In this document: in pieces, positions 632 through 60,327 of the stretch | Layout: the number at the start of each line of letters is the position of its first letter | How positions within the stretch are numbered: the first letter of the stretch is position 1 | Source of the DNA: a virus | Virus record (IMG/VR): IMGVR_UViG_3300025030_000039 | Span: 124,878-188,877 of that record | Strand: one strand, 5' to 3' | DNA: 64,000 nt | Program-made: the position numbers and the translations under genes | Notes under the pieces: generated by a model | What the model was told of the DNA's origin: nothing | What the model saw: only the letters and a program-made list of their open reading frames with translations | Database searches by the model: none

Positions 632-1015
632 ATGAAATACATAAAAGAGTATAGTGAATTTGTTAATGAATCAGTCGGAACTCCATTGACATTATATACA
701 GCAAGAGCTTCTAGTTATTTATCTCAACAATTAAAAATAGTTAAGGCTATTGAAGATAAAAAAACTCTTATGAATAAACCTAATACGGATAACGAAACAC
801 GAAAAACATTACAGGAGCATATAGCAGTCTTAAAAGAAAAGGAGGAAAAGATTAAACTGAATCTTGATAAGGCTATAGAAAAAGCTAGTGAAAAAGTTAA
901 AAAATTACCACAAGCTAAAAGAAATGCTTTAATGAAAATGGGAGAATCTGAAAAAGAAAAGGTTGATAAAATTAAAGAACAAATAATAGAGCTAAAACAA
1001 ATAAAGAGGAATTAA
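632..1015 (+). CDS. MKYIK-N-terminal family protein, Lys/Glu-rich and probably coiled-coil
   Basis: N-terminus MKYIKEYSEFVNES is shared with the ORFs at 11, 9476-10165(-), 47133 and 47553. Confidence 0.55.
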   Translation: MKYIKEYSEFVNESVGTPLTLYTARASSYLSQQLKIVKAIEDKKTLMNKPNTDNETRKTLQEHIAVLKEKEEKIKLNLDKAIEKASEKVKKLPQAKRNALMKMGESEKEKVDKIKEQIIELKQIKRN

Positions 1016-1029
1016 TTCCTCTTTATTTT

Positions 1030-10173: not shown

Positions 10174-11997
10174 TTATGTATGTATCATTCCTTCATTTGA
10201 TAAAATTAAATTTTTAACTTTATTTGTTGTCCACTTTGTAAAATGAACAGAATTTTGAGCTGCTTTTTCTTGATTTTCTTGACTTATACCTATATCAGTT
10301 GCTCCATATCTTAATGCAGTTTCTGCATCTCCAGGTGTAAGTATACTACCATCTTGCCCAGAACCTTTACTGCCAGATGCAGTATGACCGCCTTTACCTT
10401 GTATTGCACCATATACTTCAATATCTTTTCCTTCTAAATTTAATATATCTGGAAAACTATCAGCTGATGCATATAATCTACCCATACCGGCGTTAAAAGC
10501 ACTTTCAAAATCTGATTTATCTCTAGGTCTTGCATGACTTAAATTACATTTTAATTGTATAATACTAGGAAAATCATCATATCCTAAAGGACCTTTAAAA
10601 GATATATTAGAATCTTTTAATATTAAATTACCAAACATTGCAATTGGATTCATAGGATTACCAACAGTTAAATGCCAGTTACCAGTAGGTTCACCAGTTA
10701 TTAAAGCTTTAACTGCTTGATATGCTGGTGCAGCACCAATTTGAGAATTTAAAAATCCCCCTAACATATTTCCTAGAAATGTTCCTCCGACTTTTTCTAA
10801 TCCATCTAAAACAGAATCGAATGTAAATGTACCTCCAGCTGTTCCAAATGTATTTTTAAAACCTCCTGATAAATCTGTAACAACACTACCTAAATATCCT
10901 TTAAAATCTCCACTTATTAATTTTTGTATATCTCCGAACTGACTAGCAATATATCCATTTCCTCCATAAAATCTATTAGCACCCCCCCAGAAATTAGCAT
11001 TACTATAAGTAAGCACTAATAAATTAGCAAATATATCTAACATTGCAATTCTAGGATTTAAATCACTATATGCTCTTAATTCATATTCAAAGTTAACTTC
11101 AATATCATGAGTAAAATTTAAACCTATATCTCTGGTCTGCATTTTATTTATAACATTAACTGGACCAATAACAAAATTTTCATATGTTTCCATTAATGGA
11201 TCATGACCAGCCATTCTTTCTCTTCTATATTTTTCCCCTGGACTAATACCTTTCATAGTATCAAATACTGCTCTACTTATATTACCAAGTTTAGAATAAA
11301 ATGGTTGTGCAGTATATCCTTCATTTTGTGATTGATACGTATTTGTTTCGCCAGTTTGTTCTTTCCAATTATATCCATACCCAAATGATAATATATCTGT
11401 TAAATCATTACCTGTGATATCACTCATCCATGTTAAAGCTCTAGCTAAGTCAGGAACAGTTACATTTTGTATATCTCCTAGTTGATTTTCATTTTTAGAA
11501 GTTGTTCTTCTAACGTCATAAATATTATCTTCACATGGCATAGCAAATCTTCTTAATGTTAGCATATAGTTATTTGCTATTTTATCATTATATTTAGCCC
11601 ATAAAAAATCAGACCAAGCATATTCTATACCTCCATATCTTTCATTAAAAAATTCTATTATATTTTGTGGAGTAGGATCTCTAGAAAAAGCAGGAGCTGT
11701 TAATGGATTATAACTATTATTAACATCATCTCTATAATATTTATATACTTCACCTTTCGGCATTCCATGTAAACCAAACCATGTAAATAAAGAATATCTA
11801 TTAGCTAAAGATAATGGAGCAGTATCAGATAAACTGGTAGCTCTTAATGTTTTTTGAGCTACTGTATATGCATAATTTAAATAAGCTACTTTATCAGTAG
11901 GATCAATTGTCATTAATTTTCTAACTTGTTCATAATCTGCTTGATTGAAATCTTGCTGAACAGGGACATTTAATCCAGTTGTAGTTTTATCTCCCAT
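10174..11997 (-). CDS. large structural-module protein (607 aa, Gly-rich C-terminal half), function unknown
   Basis: Co-directional and tightly spaced within the tail-like module. Confidence 0.3.
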   Translation of the reverse strand: MGDKTTTGLNVPVQQDFNQADYEQVRKLMTIDPTDKVAYLNYAYTVAQKTLRATSLSDTAPLSLANRYSLFTWFGLHGMPKGEVYKYYRDDVNNSYNPLTAPAFSRDPTPQNIIEFFNERYGGIEYAWSDFLWAKYNDKIANNYMLTLRRFAMPCEDNIYDVRRTTSKNENQLGDIQNVTVPDLARALTWMSDITGNDLTDILSFGYGYNWKEQTGETNTYQSQNEGYTAQPFYSKLGNISRAVFDTMKGISPGEKYRRERMAGHDPLMETYENFVIGPVNVINKMQTRDIGLNFTHDIEVNFEYELRAYSDLNPRIAMLDIFANLLVLTYSNANFWGGANRFYGGNGYIASQFGDIQKLISGDFKGYLGSVVTDLSGGFKNTFGTAGGTFTFDSVLDGLEKVGGTFLGNMLGGFLNSQIGAAPAYQAVKALITGEPTGNWHLTVGNPMNPIAMFGNLILKDSNISFKGPLGYDDFPSIIQLKCNLSHARPRDKSDFESAFNAGMGRLYASADSFPDILNLEGKDIEVYGAIQGKGGHTASGSKGSGQDGSILTPGDAETALRYGATDIGISQENQEKAAQNSVHFTKWTTNKVKNLILSNEGMIHT

Positions 11998-12019
11998 AAA
12001 TTATATTACTTTTATTTAT

Positions 12020-13225
12020 ATAGTTATTTTTTAATTAGAGGGACCATATACTCCTCTATGTAAAATATTCACTGCTGCATTATAATCTGCATCAATCTCT
12101 ATTTTACAACTTGAACATAAATAAACTTCACCTTTACGACTCTCTTTATCTATATTCCCGCATTCTGAACAAGTCTGGCTAGTATACGCTGGATTCACCT
12201 GCTTAATAAAGAAACCTTCTTCCTCGGCCAATAAATTTAATCTAGCATACACCTTTGGATAACTCCATCGCTGTATCTTGCTCATTATTTTGTTATTTAT
12301 ATATTTGTTTGATTTATGCTTAACATTTTTTAATTCCTCAATAATCAACTGATCAGGACTTTCATTTTTTATAAACTCTTTAACAGTTACATTAATTAAT
12401 TCATCTCTTTCAATCAATGCTCTTTTAAATGATTTACTACCTTGCTCTTTTCTAGCTATCTTAGCATAAATTTCAAATAAATTTCTTCCATAATACTCTC
12501 CTGAACTAGAAGATATTAATTTTTTATATCCTGCATCTATTCCTACCGATTTAATTATTTCTTTCTTTTTAGGTTCTTTCTTTTCCCATATTAAATCTAT
12601 AAAAAATTTATTATCTTTTTTTCTTAATATTATTGTATTCTTTCTTTTCCAGTTTTCGTTTATAAACCTATTACTATACATATGATATTTAATTGGAATA
12701 TTAATTTTAACTGATCTATATTTATTATCTTGAAAATATGGAGTATATAATTTTATAAATTCATCAAATTTATATCCTTTTTCAATATTAAATAATCTAT
12801 TATCAATATGCAATGAAATATTTTTAATCTGAATTTTTGGAATTCTTTTTATATAATTAATATTTAATTCATTAAATCTTTTAGATGTAAAATTTTGATG
12901 AATATTGTTTTTTATGCATTTAGAATAAAGATATTTATATTTTTTATAAACTTTATTTTTAGATTTTTCTGTAGTACTTTTAATTATTTCAATTGCCTGT
13001 TTATATACTATTTGTTTCCATACAGAATGATTAAAAATATAATTTGGAAGTTCTTTAGATGACAGAAATTTTTCAAAAGATAAAGTTTTGTTTAAAATTA
13101 GATCGATATAATATTGAAGCATTAGTTTATAATCATTATAGAATTGATCTATAATATTTAATTTTTCTTTATTTGAAAAACTTAAAACATGCTTACTTGT
13201 TCTTATCATATAATATATATTTGAA
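12020..13225 (-). mobile_element. IS1341-type insertion sequence, copy B, intergenic
   Basis: Ends inferred from where similarity to copy A stops. Confidence 0.5.
12031..13209 (-). CDS. tnpB: TnpB (IS200/IS605-family OrfB), copy B
   Basis: The first 40 aa are identical to copy A. Zn finger CSECGNIDKESRKGEVYLCSSC and all three RuvC motifs are present. Confidence 0.85.
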   Translation of the reverse strand: MIRTSKHVLSFSNKEKLNIIDQFYNDYKLMLQYYIDLILNKTLSFEKFLSSKELPNYIFNHSVWKQIVYKQAIEIIKSTTEKSKNKVYKKYKYLYSKCIKNNIHQNFTSKRFNELNINYIKRIPKIQIKNISLHIDNRLFNIEKGYKFDEFIKLYTPYFQDNKYRSVKINIPIKYHMYSNRFINENWKRKNTIILRKKDNKFFIDLIWEKKEPKKKEIIKSVGIDAGYKKLISSSSGEYYGRNLFEIYAKIARKEQGSKSFKRALIERDELINVTVKEFIKNESPDQLIIEELKNVKHKSNKYINNKIMSKIQRWSYPKVYARLNLLAEEEGFFIKQVNPAYTSQTCSECGNIDKESRKGEVYLCSSCKIEIDADYNAAVNILHRGVYGPSN

Positions 13226-33744: not shown

Positions 33745-34935
33745 TTAAAATAAACTTACTTGGTTATACTTAGTATTTGATTTTTCTTGCTGCTTAGTAT
33801 TAGATTGTTTTGTATTTGATTCATTATTAGAACCTCCCATTAATTTAATTAATGATGGATCTTTAATAACATTTTTTAGAAAATCTTCATATGTCATTAC
33901 CTGAATTTTACTTCCTTTCTTTTTAAGAGATTCAGCTTTAACCATTTTCGTTGAACCAGAATCCATAGATGCAGTTAATAAATATGCACTATTTTCATCT
34001 AATTTATCTTGTACATATCCATAACTTTTTAAGTAATCAAACCAATCGTTTTTATGCTTTAAATGTCCAATAACGGGAGGTGTTCCAGTCATTTCAATTG
34101 CAATAAGTGATCCATCTACTTCTTGCGGATATTCTACAGTAATGAAATTATCCTTTAATAAAGATAAAAATCTCATTACACGTTGATATTGATTTGAATT
34201 TTTATCAGTTAATTGTGAAATAGCTTCTTTATTTAAATGATTAAAATCATATTCTATACCTGCAATATAATTAGCTAATTGTTCCGAAACAGAAGAACCG
34301 GTATCCTTAAACTTTAGTGATTCAATCACTTGTTTAAGGGATACCGTATCGACTGAATTGACACCATCGATTATTACTTCTAATGCTCTTCCGTTTACGA
34401 ATTTTCCACTTCTTACTAATGATATTTTATTAAATTTCTTTTTATCGAAATAATCTTCAACTGTTTTAATTCCAGCTGCATATAAATCTTTAACAGCTGA
34501 CATTCCAACATCTTTAAAACCGAATATTTTAACAGCAGCTTCTATTTTCTTCAACACTTGTGCAGGACATTCAGGATTAATACACCATAAATGTTTATCA
34601 TCTTCTGTCAATAATTCTCCGCATGATGGACAATTTGTGGGTAGGTTTGTTTTTAAAGTCGATTTAATTACAACTTTATAAATTTGAGGAATAATATCTC
34701 CAGCTTTAGCTACTAACACTTGAGCTCCAGGCCATGCTCCCATTTTATCTATTCTGTCTTTATTAAATAAAGTTGCTCTCTGAACAGTTGTACCATCTAA
34801 TTCAATAGGTTTCATTATTGCTGTAGGTACAACTTCACCAGTAGTTCCAGTATTCCATTCTATATCTATAATTGTTGTTATAGCATCTTTTGGGGGAAAC
34901 TTTATTGCAATTGCCCAGAGTGCTGTTTTTTTCAT
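33745..34935 (-). CDS. ligA: NAD-dependent DNA ligase, C-terminal piece (OB-fold, Zn finger, HhH)
   Basis: Begins MKKTALWAIAIKFPP, equivalent to the RWAVAFKFPA motif of LigA. Zn finger CPSCGELL...CINPECPAQ. Confidence 0.75.
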   Translation of the reverse strand: MKKTALWAIAIKFPPKDAITTIIDIEWNTGTTGEVVPTAIMKPIELDGTTVQRATLFNKDRIDKMGAWPGAQVLVAKAGDIIPQIYKVVIKSTLKTNLPTNCPSCGELLTEDDKHLWCINPECPAQVLKKIEAAVKIFGFKDVGMSAVKDLYAAGIKTVEDYFDKKKFNKISLVRSGKFVNGRALEVIIDGVNSVDTVSLKQVIESLKFKDTGSSVSEQLANYIAGIEYDFNHLNKEAISQLTDKNSNQYQRVMRFLSLLKDNFITVEYPQEVDGSLIAIEMTGTPPVIGHLKHKNDWFDYLKSYGYVQDKLDENSAYLLTASMDSGSTKMVKAESLKKKGSKIQVMTYEDFLKNVIKDPSLIKLMGGSNNESNTKQSNTKQQEKSNTKYNQVSLF

Positions 34936-34936
34936 A

Positions 34937-35950
34937 TTAAAATATTAAAAATTCAAAATTTAAACCTTGTTTAATACATGCATCTCTTTTTAAATAAATA
35001 ACATCAGCATGTAATTTAATACTCCAATTAGATTTAACTTCTACTATTTTATTTTCAGATTTAATATAAATATCTGGAAAATAGCGATGTTTAGAACCAT
35101 CTAATTTATAATAATAAATTCTTCCTATTTCATTTTCTATATCTATTGCTTTTATACATATATCAGATTCTATATAACCATCTTTAAATAATTTATCTAA
35201 AGCTTTATTTTCATAACCTTGAATTTTAATAATACTTCCAGATGGTAAAGTATATGATTTATATTGTAGTGTTTTATTCATTACTTTCATATATTGATCA
35301 CTATTTTGCATTGGATGGTCTGTTCCATATTTTTCTTTCCATTTTTTAAGTATTTTAATTCTTACTTCTGGAATCCACATACCATTATTTACACCATATC
35401 TATTTAATAAAGTATTTTTAATTTTATTTTGTACTTCTGGTATTTGACTTGCATTTTCAACTCCATATAGTTTTAAATATGTATTTTTAATTTTGTCTCT
35501 AATTTCCTTTGATTTCCATTGATGATCTACATTATATAATTTTAAACATGTTTTACGTGATGATTCTAAAATTTTATTTTGTACAACTTTACTTTTTCTA
35601 GGATTATCAACTCCAAATTTTTTAATACAAGTATTTCTAACTGTTTCTCTAAATTCATATGAACTACTTGAACATTTTCTTGAACAAAATTTTCTATAAT
35701 TTCTATTTTTTAAACAAAAACTATTAACTGGTTTTTTACATTCTTTACATATAGGAATATCATAAATATTATTGATTATATGCCATACTCTATGATAAAT
35801 ACTTATTCTTTTAAATTTATCATTTAAAAAATTAGTTTCATTTAAAATAGAATTATACATATTTTTATATTTATTTTGTTTAGTTACTTTATCTAAAATA
35901 TTAGAATTAAACAATTCCATTATAATTATTAAATCTTCTTGTGTTATCAT
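34937..35950 (-). mobile_element. homing-endonuclease-like ORF inserted in ligA: Zn ribbon, three ~33-aa NUMOD-like DNA-binding repeats, and a C-terminal PD-(D/E)xK-like motif
   Basis: Zn ribbon CKECKK...CSRKC. Repeats KKFGVDNPRKSKVVQNKI / YGVENASQIPEVQNKIKNT / YGVNNGMWIPEVRIKI. C-terminal motif YFPDIYIKSENKIVEVKS. The ORF stop sits 1 nt from the ligA C-piece start. Confidence 0.5.
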
Positions 35951-36008
35951 GATATATTTTTATTTTATATATCATGAAAATTTTATAGTAATTACCCATA
36001 CCAATAAT

Positions 36009-36857
36009 TTATCTAAATCCTATAGTATTTCTATACTTTTCATCTCCTTTTATTACCATTCCATCTAATTGAAATGGTGAATATTTTTCTCTATATTCTT
36101 CAAATTCATCATAAATTTTCTTAAATTCTTTAATATCGTTAAAATATTTGACATAAATAGGATATTCTTTATTAAAACCTAAATTTGTTAAAATATCTAT
36201 AGTTTTATTTTTTAGTGGAAATTCAAAACTATTACCTTTATGAATTCTTAATTCGTAAGCAACAAAAACTAAATCTTTTATAATATCTTTATTAATTTCA
36301 TCTCTAGATAATATTCCAGCTACAAAATTTCTAGCATTTTTAAATTTTTTAGCATATTTTTTATCAAATATTTTTATAGGTATAACTACTTCTCCTCTAA
36401 CTTCAATTTTTTCTTGAATTGAAATTTTGTTAGGAACTATAAAAAGCATTTTACTTTTTTGATCAAATCCATTTTCACCGTCTCCTCTTGTTAAAGCATT
36501 TTCTAAAATTCCGTATTCATATACAAGATTCATAGAATTTCCATCAAATTTAGGAGTTACTTCAAATTCATAAACTCCTTTTGATTTAATATTTAATGAC
36601 CAGTTATCAAATTCAGATATTACTTTTTGCATGTCATTACTATCATAAACACTTAATTTACCTAAAGTTCCCATTGGAGATGGATGAAGAAATTTTCCAG
36701 CTTTAACTGATCCAACAATAAAAGGAACAGTTGAACCGGCTTCTTTTAATTTTTCTTCTAAAATATCAAACTCTGCATCAGTCATTATAGGATTACCTGC
36801 ATAGTAAGTATCTTTAGCTTTTAAATATAATGTTTCTTTATCTTTTAAATTAAGCAT
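36009..36857 (-). CDS. ligA: NAD-dependent DNA ligase, N-terminal adenylation piece
   Basis: Motif I KFDG, motif III TRGDG, motif IV IEVRGEV, motif V DGMVIK; the ORF ends ...IGFR exactly where the C-piece resumes. Confidence 0.75.
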   Translation of the reverse strand: MLNLKDKETLYLKAKDTYYAGNPIMTDAEFDILEEKLKEAGSTVPFIVGSVKAGKFLHPSPMGTLGKLSVYDSNDMQKVISEFDNWSLNIKSKGVYEFEVTPKFDGNSMNLVYEYGILENALTRGDGENGFDQKSKMLFIVPNKISIQEKIEVRGEVVIPIKIFDKKYAKKFKNARNFVAGILSRDEINKDIIKDLVFVAYELRIHKGNSFEFPLKNKTIDILTNLGFNKEYPIYVKYFNDIKEFKKIYDEFEEYREKYSPFQLDGMVIKGDEKYRNTIGFR

Positions 36858-40404: not shown

Positions 40405-41754
40405 TTAAGAATTAGCATCATATTCAGGATTAATATATTTAACAGAAATAGTATTTTCATATTTACTACGAATTACAATACCTTCTATAATTTGATTCGT
40501 ATTCTCTTTTATTTCTTTAAAATAATTATTACATTTTGCAATTAAAGTATCATAATCAAAAATACCTTCAAATAATTCTGATGTATATTCAAAATTATAT
40601 TTTTCACAAAAGTCTTTTAAATTATGAGATTGTCCGTAATGAATTCTAGTTGAATGTCCAGATGATAAATCATCTATACCAAAGAAAATAACTTTAGATT
40701 CCGATAATTTTGCATCAATATTTAATTTATTTCCAGATCCTTTATTTCCAGCACCTATTAATTCTCCTCTAAGTGCTAATTGAACATTATTTTCTTTACA
40801 ATATTCTAAAAGTTTATCTAAATATCCATATTTTTTTGTTGTATCTACCCATGAATCTCTAACTTCTGTTAATATAGATTCAAATTTAATTGAAGCTTCA
40901 TCATTTGTAAAAAATTCATTTGTAATATCATTCATCCAACCTTTTGTAAATTTTTCTTTATCAAAGTGCTGTCTTAGTATAACTCCATCTTCTGTTTTAT
41001 ATCCAGTAACTATTTCTTGATCAAGTTTCTTTTCTTGATTTCTAGTGCATATACCTACTAAATATTCTTCCGGATTTATTGGATTTTTTCTACAATATAA
41101 AGTAATAGAAGATCCATCTCGTTTAATGGTTCCACTAACTATAACAGATTTTTCAAAGGATTTGTTAATATGTTCTTTTAACATTTCTAATCTTGATTCA
41201 TCAGTTTTATACATAAAAGAAGGAAAATCTCCCTTCTGCAATCCGCTATTTTGTGAACCTTCTAATGAATCATCAGCAACATATTTTGTTATATTTAGTT
41301 CTGTTTGTAAATCAAAATTTTCAGGTAATTCATTAATTAAATTAACTGGTAATACAATATGAATTGGTAAAATTATACCATTACTATATATCGGATCAGT
41401 ATTATTTTCAAATCTAAAATTGAATTTTAATGCTCTTATACGACCCTTTTTACCTAGACGAGATTTTTTTAAATCTCCACCTGGTCTCCAATATTCTTTA
41501 AATATATCGGTATCAGGAATACAATAATCAGGTTGAATATAAACAACTTTTTCACCTATTTCATAAAGTCCTTTTCCAACAATAATATTAAATTCACAAC
41601 TATTGCCGTCAGTATCTTTAACTCTAGCAACTTGTATCATATTTGCTTCAATTCCTTCTTTAAATATAGGAATTAATTTTTCAATAATAACAAAATCTAC
41701 AGGTTTCATAACATTTAAAATAAAAAATAGTAAATAAGAATAGGTATAATACAA
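40405..41754 (-). CDS. ATP-dependent nucleotidyltransferase, RNA/DNA-ligase-like (KxDG motif I)
   Basis: GTIKRDGSSITLY is a motif I candidate; GELIGAGNKGSGNK are motif IV/V candidates; assignment is tentative. Confidence 0.35.
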   Translation of the reverse strand: MYYTYSYLLFFILNVMKPVDFVIIEKLIPIFKEGIEANMIQVARVKDTDGNSCEFNIIVGKGLYEIGEKVVYIQPDYCIPDTDIFKEYWRPGGDLKKSRLGKKGRIRALKFNFRFENNTDPIYSNGIILPIHIVLPVNLINELPENFDLQTELNITKYVADDSLEGSQNSGLQKGDFPSFMYKTDESRLEMLKEHINKSFEKSVIVSGTIKRDGSSITLYCRKNPINPEEYLVGICTRNQEKKLDQEIVTGYKTEDGVILRQHFDKEKFTKGWMNDITNEFFTNDEASIKFESILTEVRDSWVDTTKKYGYLDKLLEYCKENNVQLALRGELIGAGNKGSGNKLNIDAKLSESKVIFFGIDDLSSGHSTRIHYGQSHNLKDFCEKYNFEYTSELFEGIFDYDTLIAKCNNYFKEIKENTNQIIEGIVIRSKYENTISVKYINPEYDANS

Positions 41755-42077
41755 CCAACAGTAACTCCAACTACTTCTACCATTAAATGAGTACTTGGTT
41801 TAACTGAAAAACATTTTTCAAAAAGTAATGCTACAAATATTCCAGCAAAAGCTCCAATAATATCTGAAAATGTATTTCCAATCATACTAGATAATAATGG
41901 ATTATCTTCAGGCTTAAGAAAAGGATTAATATCCATTCCTATAGCTAAAAATCCATTATCTATTATTCCAAAAACTGTCATAAATAACATTCCTGCTATA
42001 AAACTTACAACTTTATCTTTTGTAGTTAATCTTATTGTTTTTCTAGTCATATTTTTAAAATAAATAAATGAGCACAA
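41715..42077 (-). CDS. small integral membrane protein (120 aa)
   Basis: About three hydrophobic helices. Confidence 0.4.
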   Translation of the reverse strand: MCSFIYFKNMTRKTIRLTTKDKVVSFIAGMLFMTVFGIIDNGFLAIGMDINPFLKPEDNPLLSSMIGNTFSDIIGAFAGIFVALLFEKCFSVKPSTHLMVEVVGVTVGCIIPILIYYFLF

Positions 42078-42094
42078 ATATTTGTGCTCATTTA
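42067..42094 (-). terminator. perfect hairpin AAATGAGCACAAA-TAT-TTTGTGCTCATTT followed by a T-rich run on the minus strand
   Basis: 13-bp stem; lies 3' of the gene 42103-42474. Confidence 0.55.
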
Positions 42095-44670: not shown

Positions 44671-44969
44671 TATAATTTTTCGAAACATTTTAAAATAATA
44701 GAACATTTTTCATATTCTTCTATTTCAATATAATAGTTCTTTAGTTCTTCCAAAATTATATTCCAATTATTTCTATGACATTTTATTTGCATAAGTTTAG
44801 ATCCTTTTAATTCTAAATAAAAAATAGGCATTAATAAAATATCATTATTTATTCCATAGATAATAGCGTTATATAAATTATTATATAACAAATCTTTATT
44901 AGCAGTTAATTGGCCAAAAGCTTCATTAACTGTATTGCAGTTCATAAGTTTAAAAGTAGATAATTGCAT
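44670..44969 (-). CDS. hypothetical protein (99 aa)
   Basis: ORF. Confidence 0.35.
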   Translation of the reverse strand: MQLSTFKLMNCNTVNEAFGQLTANKDLLYNNLYNAIIYGINNDILLMPIFYLELKGSKLMQIKCHRNNWNIILEELKNYYIEIEEYEKCSIILKCFEKL

Positions 44970-53934: not shown

Positions 53935-53955
53935 ACGAATATATTTAAAGTTAAT

Positions 53956-53990
53956 TTGTAAAAGTGTCCTAAATTAGGACACTTTTACAA
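53956..53990. promoter_or_regulatory. perfect 15-bp-arm palindrome TTGTAAAAGTGTCCT-AAATT-AGGACACTTTTACAA between the OmpA-fusion gene and the downstream ABC genes; operator or terminator
   Basis: Seen directly in the sequence. Confidence 0.45.
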
Positions 53991-54003
53991 ATTCTTATTT
54001 ATA

Positions 54004-59104: not shown

Positions 59105-60327
59105 CTCAAGTAGAGAAACATATACTTACTTCATCTGAACTTTATGACTTAACATTTAAAGCAAAAAATCTTTATAATGCTGCTTTATGGATCATAAGAC
59201 AATCGTTCTGCAAAACTAAAGAATTAAGACACGAGTCTAAAATGATCTTCTATAACGAACTTTACACTTTGATGAAAGATCATGAAGCATATAAAGCATT
59301 ACCTGCTGTGGCTGCTTAACAAATCTTAAGAACTCTAGACAAGAACTTCAAATCTTATTTCATGTTCATTAAAGATTGGAAGAAAAATCCATCTAAATAT
59401 TTAGGTATGCCAAAGCTTCCTAACTACATGAAGAAAGATGGTCATGCAACTTTTGCAATTCCAGGACAAACTTTTAGAACATTAAAAAATGGATTAACAA
59501 TACCAAAAACTAAAGAAAAGTCATCTAACATAAAAACTAAAGTAACTAAAGAAAAATTAAAAGAAGTAAGAATCATACCACTTTCACAAAAAAATAAAGT
59601 AAAAGTAGAAGTAATATATTCTAAAGAAAAACAAAATCTTAATTTAAATAAAGAAAATGCAATAGGAATTGACATTGGTGTAAATAACTTAATGGCTATA
59701 ACTTCAAATCAGATAGATCCTCTAGTATGTCTAATAAATGGTAGACCATTAAAGTCAATAAATCAATATTTTAACAAAAAATCTACAAAACTTAAGTCAG
59801 CTTTAGAAAAATGTCAAGGAAGAAAAACATCAAGAAAACTTGAGAAATTAAATCAAAAAAGACAAAACAAAATTGATGATTATCTTCATAAAGCAAGTAA
59901 GAAAGTTATTGATTTATGTAAAGAAAATAACATCGGGACTATAGTTATAGGTCATAATAAAGAATGGAAGCAAGAATGCAACTTAGGAAAAGTTAACAAC
60001 CAAAACTTTATTCAGTTGCCTTTCAATAAGTTAATTGGTATGATAACTTACAAAGCAGATTTAATTTCTAATGATGTTAAAGTTTCTGAAGAGTCTTACA
60101 CAAGTAAAATTGATCATCTTGCTAATGAAGAAATGAAAAAACAAGAAACGTATAAAGGCAAAAGAATAAAGAGAGGATTGTTCTTAAGCAGCATTTGTAA
60201 AGTACTTAATGCAGACACAAATGGAAGCATCGGTATCTTAAGAAAAAAGAAAGCAGTTTCTAAAGAGTGGCTTGCCACTGTAGGAAATAGAGGTTGTGTG
60301 TATCAGCCATTTAAAATAAGTTTATAA
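59086..60327 (+). pseudogene. tnpB: IS607-type TnpB with an in-frame TAA (59317-59319) at a conserved Gln position
   Basis: ...YKALPAVAA*QILRTLDKNFKSYF is continuous in a single frame. RuvC-I GIDIGVNN, RuvC-II SEESYTSK, RuvC-III LNADTNGSIGI; no Zn finger. Confidence 0.6.

Follow-up and report, generated by a model that had tools for sequence, protein, structure and literature searches.

How does a phage come to carry its NAD+-dependent DNA ligase (LigA) gene in two pieces flanking a third gene, and could two such pieces still make an enzyme? The question is raised by a 64,000-nt stretch of viral DNA (positions 124,878 to 188,877 of the IMG/VR record IMGVR_UViG_3300025030_000039; below, the window), in which an initial annotation, made from the letters alone, had described ligA as split at a precise point by an open reading frame (ORF) resembling a homing endonuclease gene. 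All coordinates and sequence claims of that annotation (the three ORFs, the IGFR-stop end of the first piece, the start of the second and the motifs) were reproduced in the present analysis, and its interpretation is supported. The explanation favored here, to which we assign a probability of roughly 0.6, is that a gene of the Pfam family DUF7487 invaded a single ligA and that the two halves reassemble into an active ligase. That the locus is a ligA fractured by an endonuclease gene, free of intron and intein, is held with high confidence, while the formation of a working ligase by the two chains is judged reasonably probable from the sequence features described below. The ALTERNATIVES tested included an intron, an intein, a transposon and an artefact.

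Two ORFs tile one ligase

The upstream half of the gene, the N-piece (36009-36857; like the two other ORFs of the locus, on the minus strand), encodes 282 aa with domain Ia and the nucleotidyltransferase (NTase) motifs I-V and ends with IGFR-TAA. It matched Pfam DNA_ligase_aden (E=4e-33) and carries KFDG, TRGDG, EVRGEV and DGMVIK. Domain Ia was recognized by the alignment of residues 18-39, with Y18, D27 and D31 invariant, and NTase motifs I, III, IIIa, IV and V were all located in this piece (K103/D105/G106, R124, E152/E156, D265/G266/K270), the motif I lysine K103 of KFDG being encoded at 36549-36551 (minus strand). The downstream half, the C-piece (33745-34935, minus strand), encodes 396 aa starting with MKKTALWAIAIKFPP and consists of an MKKTAL tail, the last NTase beta-strand (residues 4-12; 34900-34926, minus strand), an OB fold, a Cys4 zinc finger, a helix-hairpin-helix (HhH) region and a BRCT-like end. 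The terminal NTase strand with its conserved lysine thus sits on the other chain: W7...K12-F-P of the C-piece aligns to residues 309-316 of the solved Escherichia coli LigA structure 2OWO, and K12 (34900-34902, minus strand) is the equivalent of E. coli K314. The annotation had the C-piece keeping the OB fold, zinc finger and HhH, in agreement with the Pfam matches to the OB fold (E=1e-23) and to the zinc finger (E=2e-4, below the curated cut-off, with all four cysteines conserved); HhH and BRCT were identified by profile and structural model, without a Pfam match, the model having a helical HhH and a beta/alpha BRCT-like end.

On the full-length LigA profile PHROG 3869 (656 positions) the N-piece covers positions 8-292 and the C-piece 295-654, and together they account for a single ligase without gaps, overlaps or surplus residues, a match far beyond chance. 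They lie in different frames, as annotated (36857-34935 = 1922 = 2 mod 3), and LigA is not encoded here as a single polypeptide, since IGFR is followed by TAA, a 1073-nt insert and then a separate ATG. The insert, previously given as about 1.07 kb, carries a 337-aa ORF on the same strand whose stop was correctly placed 1 nt from the C-piece ATG (TAA-T-ATG, 34933-34939, minus strand; endonuclease stop at 34937-34939). Its non-coding DNA amounts to 59 nt, namely an AT-rich spacer of 58 nt between the N-piece stop and the endonuclease start (35951-36008, minus strand) and the 1 nt 3' of the ORF.

The source of the window is a metagenome-assembled genome, in which a chimeric join or a false frameshift might imitate a split gene. 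The window matches GenBank LR756500.1, an unannotated "uncultured phage" genome of 462,018 bp with a GC content of 24%, and is a second variant of this phage: the two are identical in the region of interest, although LR756500.1 carries elsewhere a 1.69-kb segment that the window lacks. The split arrangement is present in both variants, 6 contigs from independent assemblies encode an identical C-piece flanked by the same neighbours, and the insert is a complete, conserved 337-aa gene without a frameshift, which makes an assembly or sequencing artefact practically negligible.

Shorter relatives of the ligase were also encountered. The proteins P0243, P0246, P0255, P0262 and P0266 (361-411 aa; e.g. 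L046 5001-6164) have adenylation and OB domains only, are 35-46% identical to the N-piece and are encoded on long contigs, with no neighbouring zinc finger, HhH or BRCT gene detected by Pfam match; they are truncated or differently split LigAs of the same clade. Another candidate, the 313-aa LigA fragment P0247 (L048), diverges 10 residues past the junction into a tail of unrelated, GC-richer DNA without an intron signal on a 1.5-kb contig, and was dropped as probably chimeric.

The break lies inside the catalytic domain

The break was located with the 120 best database matches to the concatenated N+C protein, from which the window's own C-piece and one contig-truncated fragment were left out. 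The remaining 118 nearest homologs are single-chain LigAs of about 615-685 aa with 38-56% identity, several of them on contigs above 300 kb; none (0/118) is interrupted at the junction and the endonuclease is absent from all. This insertion-site comparison, which the annotation had proposed, places the break within one residue and so bears out its precise split point. In the structure-based alignment the end of the N-piece falls near residue 303 of E. coli LigA, and C-piece residues 5-109 align to residues 307-415 (W7 on W309, K12 on K314), so that the break maps to residues ~303/304, in a surface loop ahead of the K314-bearing strand. Across the junction the homologs read ...R..IG(Y/F)(T/A)DHHPKWAIAIKFPPKDAIT and the window reads ...RNTIGFR-stop, then MKKTAL-WAIAIKFPPKDAIT. 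DNA homology to the uninterrupted relatives stops after ATA GGA TTT and restarts at the TGG codon; the cassette has therefore taken the place of six loop codons (TDHHPK in the relatives) and, by the same comparison, supplied a stop codon and the 58-nt hairpin leader on the 5' side and a start codon with MKKTAL on the 3' side. The 6-residue MKKTAL tail is new on the C-piece, and the N-piece gained a tail of one residue (R) at most.

In the AlphaFold2 model of the concatenated protein (mean pLDDT 87) the motif V strand (264-271) is followed by a helix (273-279), a loop (280-285), a strand (286-294, equal to C-piece 4-12) and the OB fold. The break falls inside the loop, between helix and strand, at a local pLDDT dip of 74. 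Given this order of elements, the break lies inside the NTase domain and parts motifs I-V from its last strand, whose lysine (K314) is reportedly essential according to mutagenesis in the Shuman laboratory. The 12-residue window that ranks second in conservation over the whole protein (ALWAIAIKFPPK; 0.889 against 0.893 for the top one) follows 4 residues after the break, and highly conserved sites are the typical homes of homing endonucleases, introns and inteins.

Fifteen nucleotides at the stop-codon junction of the N-piece recur without mismatch, as a direct repeat (AATAATTTATCTAAA; window 36003-36017 and 35187-35201; chance expectation roughly ~0.03), in a conserved internal segment of the endonuclease ORF (ALDKLF), and the repeat may record how the 5' junction formed. 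A possible remnant of the ancestral loop past the N-piece stop (IIGMGNYYK against IGYTDHHPK) was too weak to claim.

The intervening gene belongs to DUF7487

The middle ORF (34937-35950, minus strand; 337 aa) matched Pfam DUF7487 (E=1.5e-50) up to the last position of the profile and bears the PHROGs label homing endonuclease (phrog_3339, E=2e-20). Its AlphaFold2 model (pLDDT 94.8) contains an N-terminal helical region, a zinc-finger region, five helical modules of ~23 residues and a C-terminal alpha/beta domain. The Cys4 zinc finger (35672-35749, minus strand) is formed by C68, C71, C89 and C93, all in near-invariant columns; the tandem ~23-residue modules with the pattern (Y/F)GVxN...K.K.T (35273-35659, minus strand; family D1, 69-nt spacing) are a presumed DNA-binding array; and the nuclease domain occupies 34943-35260 (minus strand). 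Among 50 aligned family members the invariant columns are Q244-G245-x-E247, D293 (in FPD), E304-x-K306-S307 and K321, a pattern that corresponds to the canonical PD-(D/E)xK signature, and the catalytic motif is intact in the middle ORF (E247 at 35210-35212, D293 at 35072-35074, E304 at 35039-35041 and K306 at 35033-35035, minus strand). The E...PD...(D/E)xK motif was found on an alpha-beta-beta-beta-alpha-beta core, and none of the 50 members' nuclease-domain columns held an invariant or near-invariant catalytic histidine of the Vsr-like/EDxHD type. The best structural match was the Tn7 TnsA catalytic domain, while no solved structure gave significant sequence similarity and a literature search for DUF7487 returned nothing usable. 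The homing-endonuclease-like ORF of the annotation is thus specified as a predicted PD-(D/E)xK nuclease with modular DNA-binding repeats.

Ten members of this family were matched in the phage genome. Among them, a full-length, free-standing paralog (401 aa, 37% identity) lies just upstream of the window; several others are longer (537-634 aa), stand beside capsid, portal and tail-sheath genes and share only the DNA-binding half (zinc finger plus helical repeats), having a different nuclease and an extra C-terminal domain (ARKC...NHLQG), in one case with a weak REase_MTES_1575 Pfam match below the curated cut-off. Family members were located at L005 32153-38061 (three in tandem), L006 23125-24924 and 31551-33164, L007 ~800-1300 and ~11660-12220, and L008 18059-19264. 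The nuclease domains of the family look modularly swapped, and the shuffled modules, high copy number and siting by conserved genes are typical of free-standing phage homing endonucleases. Relatives elsewhere are likewise free-standing, with major head, neck or sheath genes as neighbours. In each of two unrelated viral contigs from IMG/VR (L030 2778-7317 and L033 2568-6063) a full-length DUF7487 gene fractures a class II ribonucleotide reductase (RNR) whose upstream half ends with a Hint/intein fragment, the fractured-gene arrangement of Dassa et al. (2009; PMC2677866); in L030 the downstream half also contains a second, complete, HNH-containing intein. DUF7487 is widespread in huge phages and in giant viruses or giant-virus-like contigs, both free-standing and within fractured genes.

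The structural likeness to TnsA, together with a weak Pfam match to Tn7_TnsA-like_N in the middle ORF, might point to a transposon or an insertion sequence as the origin of the insert, and the genome does hold elements of the IS605/TnpB type. However, the insert ends have neither terminal inverted repeats nor a target-site duplication, its single ORF has no transposase (TnsB-like) partner, and the family members adjoin or interrupt genes of high conservation (capsid, sheath, RNR, ligase), the usual placement of free-standing homing endonucleases; a transposon is highly improbable.

Neither an intron nor an intein

Phage introns commonly house endonuclease ORFs, and a group I or other self-splicing intron could in principle restore ligA by splicing (e.g. 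...IGF|KKTALW...): joining a 5' site that ends in U (GGA TTT|) to a 3' site that ends in G (ATG|AAA) would keep the reading frame and give a junction of plausible length. When 3.6 kb and 1.2 kb around the insert were scanned permissively with Rfam, no intron was matched at E<=10, while the same settings recovered two ORF-bearing T4 introns, those of td (40.3 bits, E=9e-8) and nrdB (35.7 bits, E=2e-6), in line with the lack of an intron core noticed initially. Moreover, only 59 of the 1073 nt lie outside the ORF, where an intron would need some 200 nt or more of structured RNA around the coding sequence, and the 3' end of the insert is protein-coding, as the ORF fits DUF7487 to its last position. 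The GC content of 17-23%, a 3' junction no more structured than shuffled sequence (z=+0.42) and an ATG exactly where a start codon is needed likewise speak against splicing, and an intron is most improbable. A split intein was rejected, since there was no Hint/Intein match and the coverage of PHROG 3869 (8-292 and 295-654) leaves no spare residues in either piece.

A same-strand endonuclease ORF between tiling halves, an insertion absent in homologs and intact catalytic residues were thus all found at this locus, as in a fractured gene.

Is the ligase retained?

The annotation had named an additional intact ligA, together with inactivating changes in the pieces, as a finding that would speak against a two-subunit ligase, and neither was seen. 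No second DNA ligase was detected over the 462-kb genome by tblastn with the LigA pieces, T4 gp30 and RnlA or by a KxDG motif screen, which returned only two PF09414 RNA ligases (window 40405-41709, minus strand, E=3e-9; LR756500.1 25610-26704, minus strand, E=6e-28) and one unclassified ORF of 421 aa without a Pfam match (record 267941-269206). No excess of inactivating changes was present: the 678 codons of both pieces have no stops or frameshifts in a genome context of 24-26% GC, and of the 130 columns that are near-invariant (>=90% conserved) in the 118 homologs the pieces keep 122, compared with 16, 6, 8 and 12 missed by the four closest uninterrupted relatives. Mean identity to the 114 outgroup homologs is 42.6% for the split protein and 38.4-41.4% for its four intact sisters, and the same is true of each half. 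On these alignments the split pieces show no decay and evolve no faster than their uninterrupted relatives.

Several points weigh against a functional ligase. The conserved DHHP(K) loop is lost; Ala stands in place of a proline found in all 118 homologs (E. coli P307); the position preceding the Trp (R308 in E. coli, K in 86/118 homologs) holds Leu, seen in 1/118; and a few other near-invariant positions are changed, e.g. PMLS to PMGT. A related-locus search in IMG/VR and degenerate-pattern scans of IMG/VR and JGI metagenome contigs turned up no diverged allele of the fractured ligA, so that purifying selection after the split is not measurable (no dN/dS). A very recent inactivating invasion would look alike, and the LigA of the host could make the phage gene dispensable.

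These points lead to the alternative that ligA was recently killed by the endonuclease, the halves being undegraded pseudogene fragments or non-functional products and the phage relying on host LigA. The intact, catalytically complete endonuclease suggests a relatively young invasion, the loss of the DHHPK loop with the changed P307/R308 equivalents fits a dead gene, diverged split alleles that would demonstrate long-term upkeep are missing, and the NTase+OB-only relatives indicate that LigA modules are dispensable or variable in the clade. On the other side, the reading frames are open throughout, the invariant sites are kept as well as or better than in the intact sisters, of the five ingroup sequences the split protein has evolved most slowly, the start codon of the C-piece is clean and its context typical of this genome, and this is the only DNA ligase gene of a 462-kb phage that encodes much of its own DNA metabolism. 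On balance a recently killed ligA is unlikely, though far from negligible.

It may also be supposed that both halves are expressed with separate roles and never form a ligase, the N-piece as an NAD+-dependent adenylyltransferase and the C-piece as a DNA- or clamp-binding factor. LigN 1-417 (domain Ia, adenylation and OB domains) indeed self-adenylates and does not ligate (PMC1684257), and LigA relatives with only NTase and OB domains exist. However, the N-piece is short of an integral beta-strand and of the K314 equivalent and is therefore unlikely to fold or adenylylate alone, and full ligase-specific conservation is retained in both halves, so that separate roles are very improbable. The reassembly of the halves into a ligase remains the preferred explanation.

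Expression signals

The endonuclease start codon (35948-35950) lies within the 3' arm of a perfect 11-bp hairpin (35947-35977, minus strand; TCATGATATAT, 9-nt loop, ATATATCATGA; present in the centroid fold). Six such perfect hairpins occur in the 64 kb of the window against ~0.9 expected, and this one may serve as a translational gate. The paralogs are not alike in their start-codon hairpins, a point against the favored explanation, and for this reason the hairpin was dropped as a conserved feature of the cassette. The C-piece start context, TTTTAATATG with a 1-nt gap, recurs at the next downstream gene; it is typical of this genome, and its folding is no stronger than in shuffled controls. 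Gaps of 1 nt between stop and start are common in this genome, a caveat on translational coupling. A simple terminator scan found no terminator-like site between the three ORFs; such a scan would not cover the three long intergenic hairpins described below (13-19 bp stems).

Comparison with known systems

The closest parallel is the one proposed initially, the nrdA-a/mobE/nrdA-b locus of phage Aeh1 (Friedrich et al., 2007; Crona et al., 2011, PMC3045599), which has the same architecture: a same-strand endonuclease gene within an essential DNA-metabolism gene at a conserved critical site, neither intron nor intein, new short tails, a hairpin over the endonuclease start, a stop tightly linked to the downstream start and, as proposed here, an active site shared by two chains. 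The differences are in the gene (LigA here, RNR there), in the endonuclease (PD-(D/E)xK of DUF7487 here, HNH there) and in the tails, which are far smaller here (R at most and MKKTAL). Aeh1 NrdA-a/NrdA-b are active and depend on the insertion-derived tails (PMC3045599), i.e. function was shown for Aeh1, while in the present case it is predicted. Besides Aeh1 nrdA/mobE, endonuclease-fractured phage genes include T4 genes 39/60 with mobA and gene 43 of phage 25 (PMC2988022). In gene-fracturing endonucleases, hairpins have been described at the translation start, as has a stop that overlaps or is coupled to the start of the downstream half (PMC2988022, PMC2677866).

Among the fractured genes of Dassa et al. 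(2009) are an intein-less SbcD-like gene and a split-intein DNA ligase (PMC2677866). The present locus resembles them in the hairpin at the endonuclease start and in the overlap or coupling with the downstream half. In contrast, nearly all cases described there, including the ligase, have split inteins, of which there is none here, and their endonucleases are GIY-YIG or Vsr-like (EDxHD), compared with E...PD...ExK without an invariant histidine in DUF7487.

Split phage LigAs are also known. A passage of PMC1684257 citing Wang et al. (2005) mentions a split NAD+ ligase of T5-like phages with subunits A and B, and two-gene phage LigAs are common enough to have their own PHROGs (3359 and 3498). 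As in the locus studied here, LigA of the T5 type is encoded by two adjacent same-strand genes, for example in Vibrio phage VCPH (L001), where subunit A extends through the OB fold, subunit B opens with the zinc finger and the intervening ORF encodes an 80-aa hypothetical protein, not an endonuclease. The break there is at the domain boundary after the OB fold and before the zinc finger, whereas here it lies inside the NTase domain, ~100 residues earlier and before the last NTase strand.

On the side of the nuclease, Vsr, I-Bth0305I and I-Ssp6803I are repair or homing enzymes and, with Tn7 TnsA, belong to the restriction-fold nucleases. The architecture of a zinc finger, five helical repeats and a nuclease is not that of Tn7 TnsA or I-Ssp6803I. 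Endonuclease-fractured phage genes and split phage LigAs were thus already known and no concept is changed; new here are the break inside the catalytic domain, the DUF7487 endonuclease family and the setting in a 462-kb phage.

Other features of the window and the source genome

The standard genetic code suits the window, in which long ORFs cover 91% and TAA is the dominant stop. The segment that distinguishes the two variants is a presence/absence polymorphism of one phage: 1,693 nt are extra in LR756500.1 (367255-368992, equal to L009 17255-18992; window ~44874-44920), with 45 nt differing at the junction. The extra DNA contains a 440-aa ORF (L009 17551-18873, plus strand) that is superficially TnpB-like and has no Pfam match. 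IS605/TnpB-type ORFs were noticed at window 59362-60327 (plus strand; similar by eye only) and at L006 22077-22946 (plus strand), the latter copy matching OrfB_IS605 (E=6e-21) and a Cas12f1-like TNB domain.

Only 2 of the 64 minus-strand genes of the window have a Shine-Dalgarno-like (SD) motif; the leaders ahead of the starts are A/T-rich, and the gap between one stop and the next start often measures 0-11 nt. This pattern suggests a host with SD-independent initiation. Long perfect hairpins with stems of 13-19 bp stand between genes at window 999-1028, 42065-42094 and 53953-53993 and may be terminators or regulatory sites. Many small and medium-sized ORFs that are otherwise unrelated begin with MK(Y/F)(I/L)xxYE(E/D)F (L008 14576-18055 and 20199-20726, L005 30972-32141, and record 267941-269206), which may be a conserved N-terminal tag or mark a paralog family.

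Proposed explanation and its meaning

In the proposed scenario a free-standing DUF7487 homing-endonuclease gene would have invaded the single ligA of the phage, inserting in the loop just upstream of WAIAIKFPP, which is among the protein's two best-conserved stretches. The three ORFs would be co-transcribed, the endonuclease being translated at a low level or late, as its start codon is sequestered, and the C-piece would start independently or by coupling, at its own AU-rich, unstructured, SD-less start near the endonuclease stop. It is a speculative extension that synthesis of the C-piece is coupled to the hairpin-gated endonuclease ORF, timing ligase assembly in infection. The two polypeptides would then reassemble non-covalently into an active NAD+-dependent ligase, the C-piece donating the last NTase beta-strand with the K314-equivalent lysine to the N-piece fold with K103 and motifs III-V. 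Because the C-piece would supply this strand, the active site would be built from two chains, as in Aeh1 NrdA-a/NrdA-b. The more specific proposition, that the NTase fold and active site are completed in trans by a second chain, which brings all the DNA-binding domains as well, and that the split was made by DUF7487 as a TnsA-like PD-(D/E)xK homing endonuclease family, has about an even chance of being correct.

If the two chains are active, the locus would represent a natural split site within the LigA catalytic domain, in which the adenylylated lysine is parted from the K314 equivalent. This would inform on the tolerance of the ligase fold to fragmentation and on the engineering of split ligases. 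Pfam DUF7487 gains a functional label as a modular PD-(D/E)xK homing-endonuclease family with swappable nuclease domains, and the fractured-gene phenomenon is extended to huge phages.

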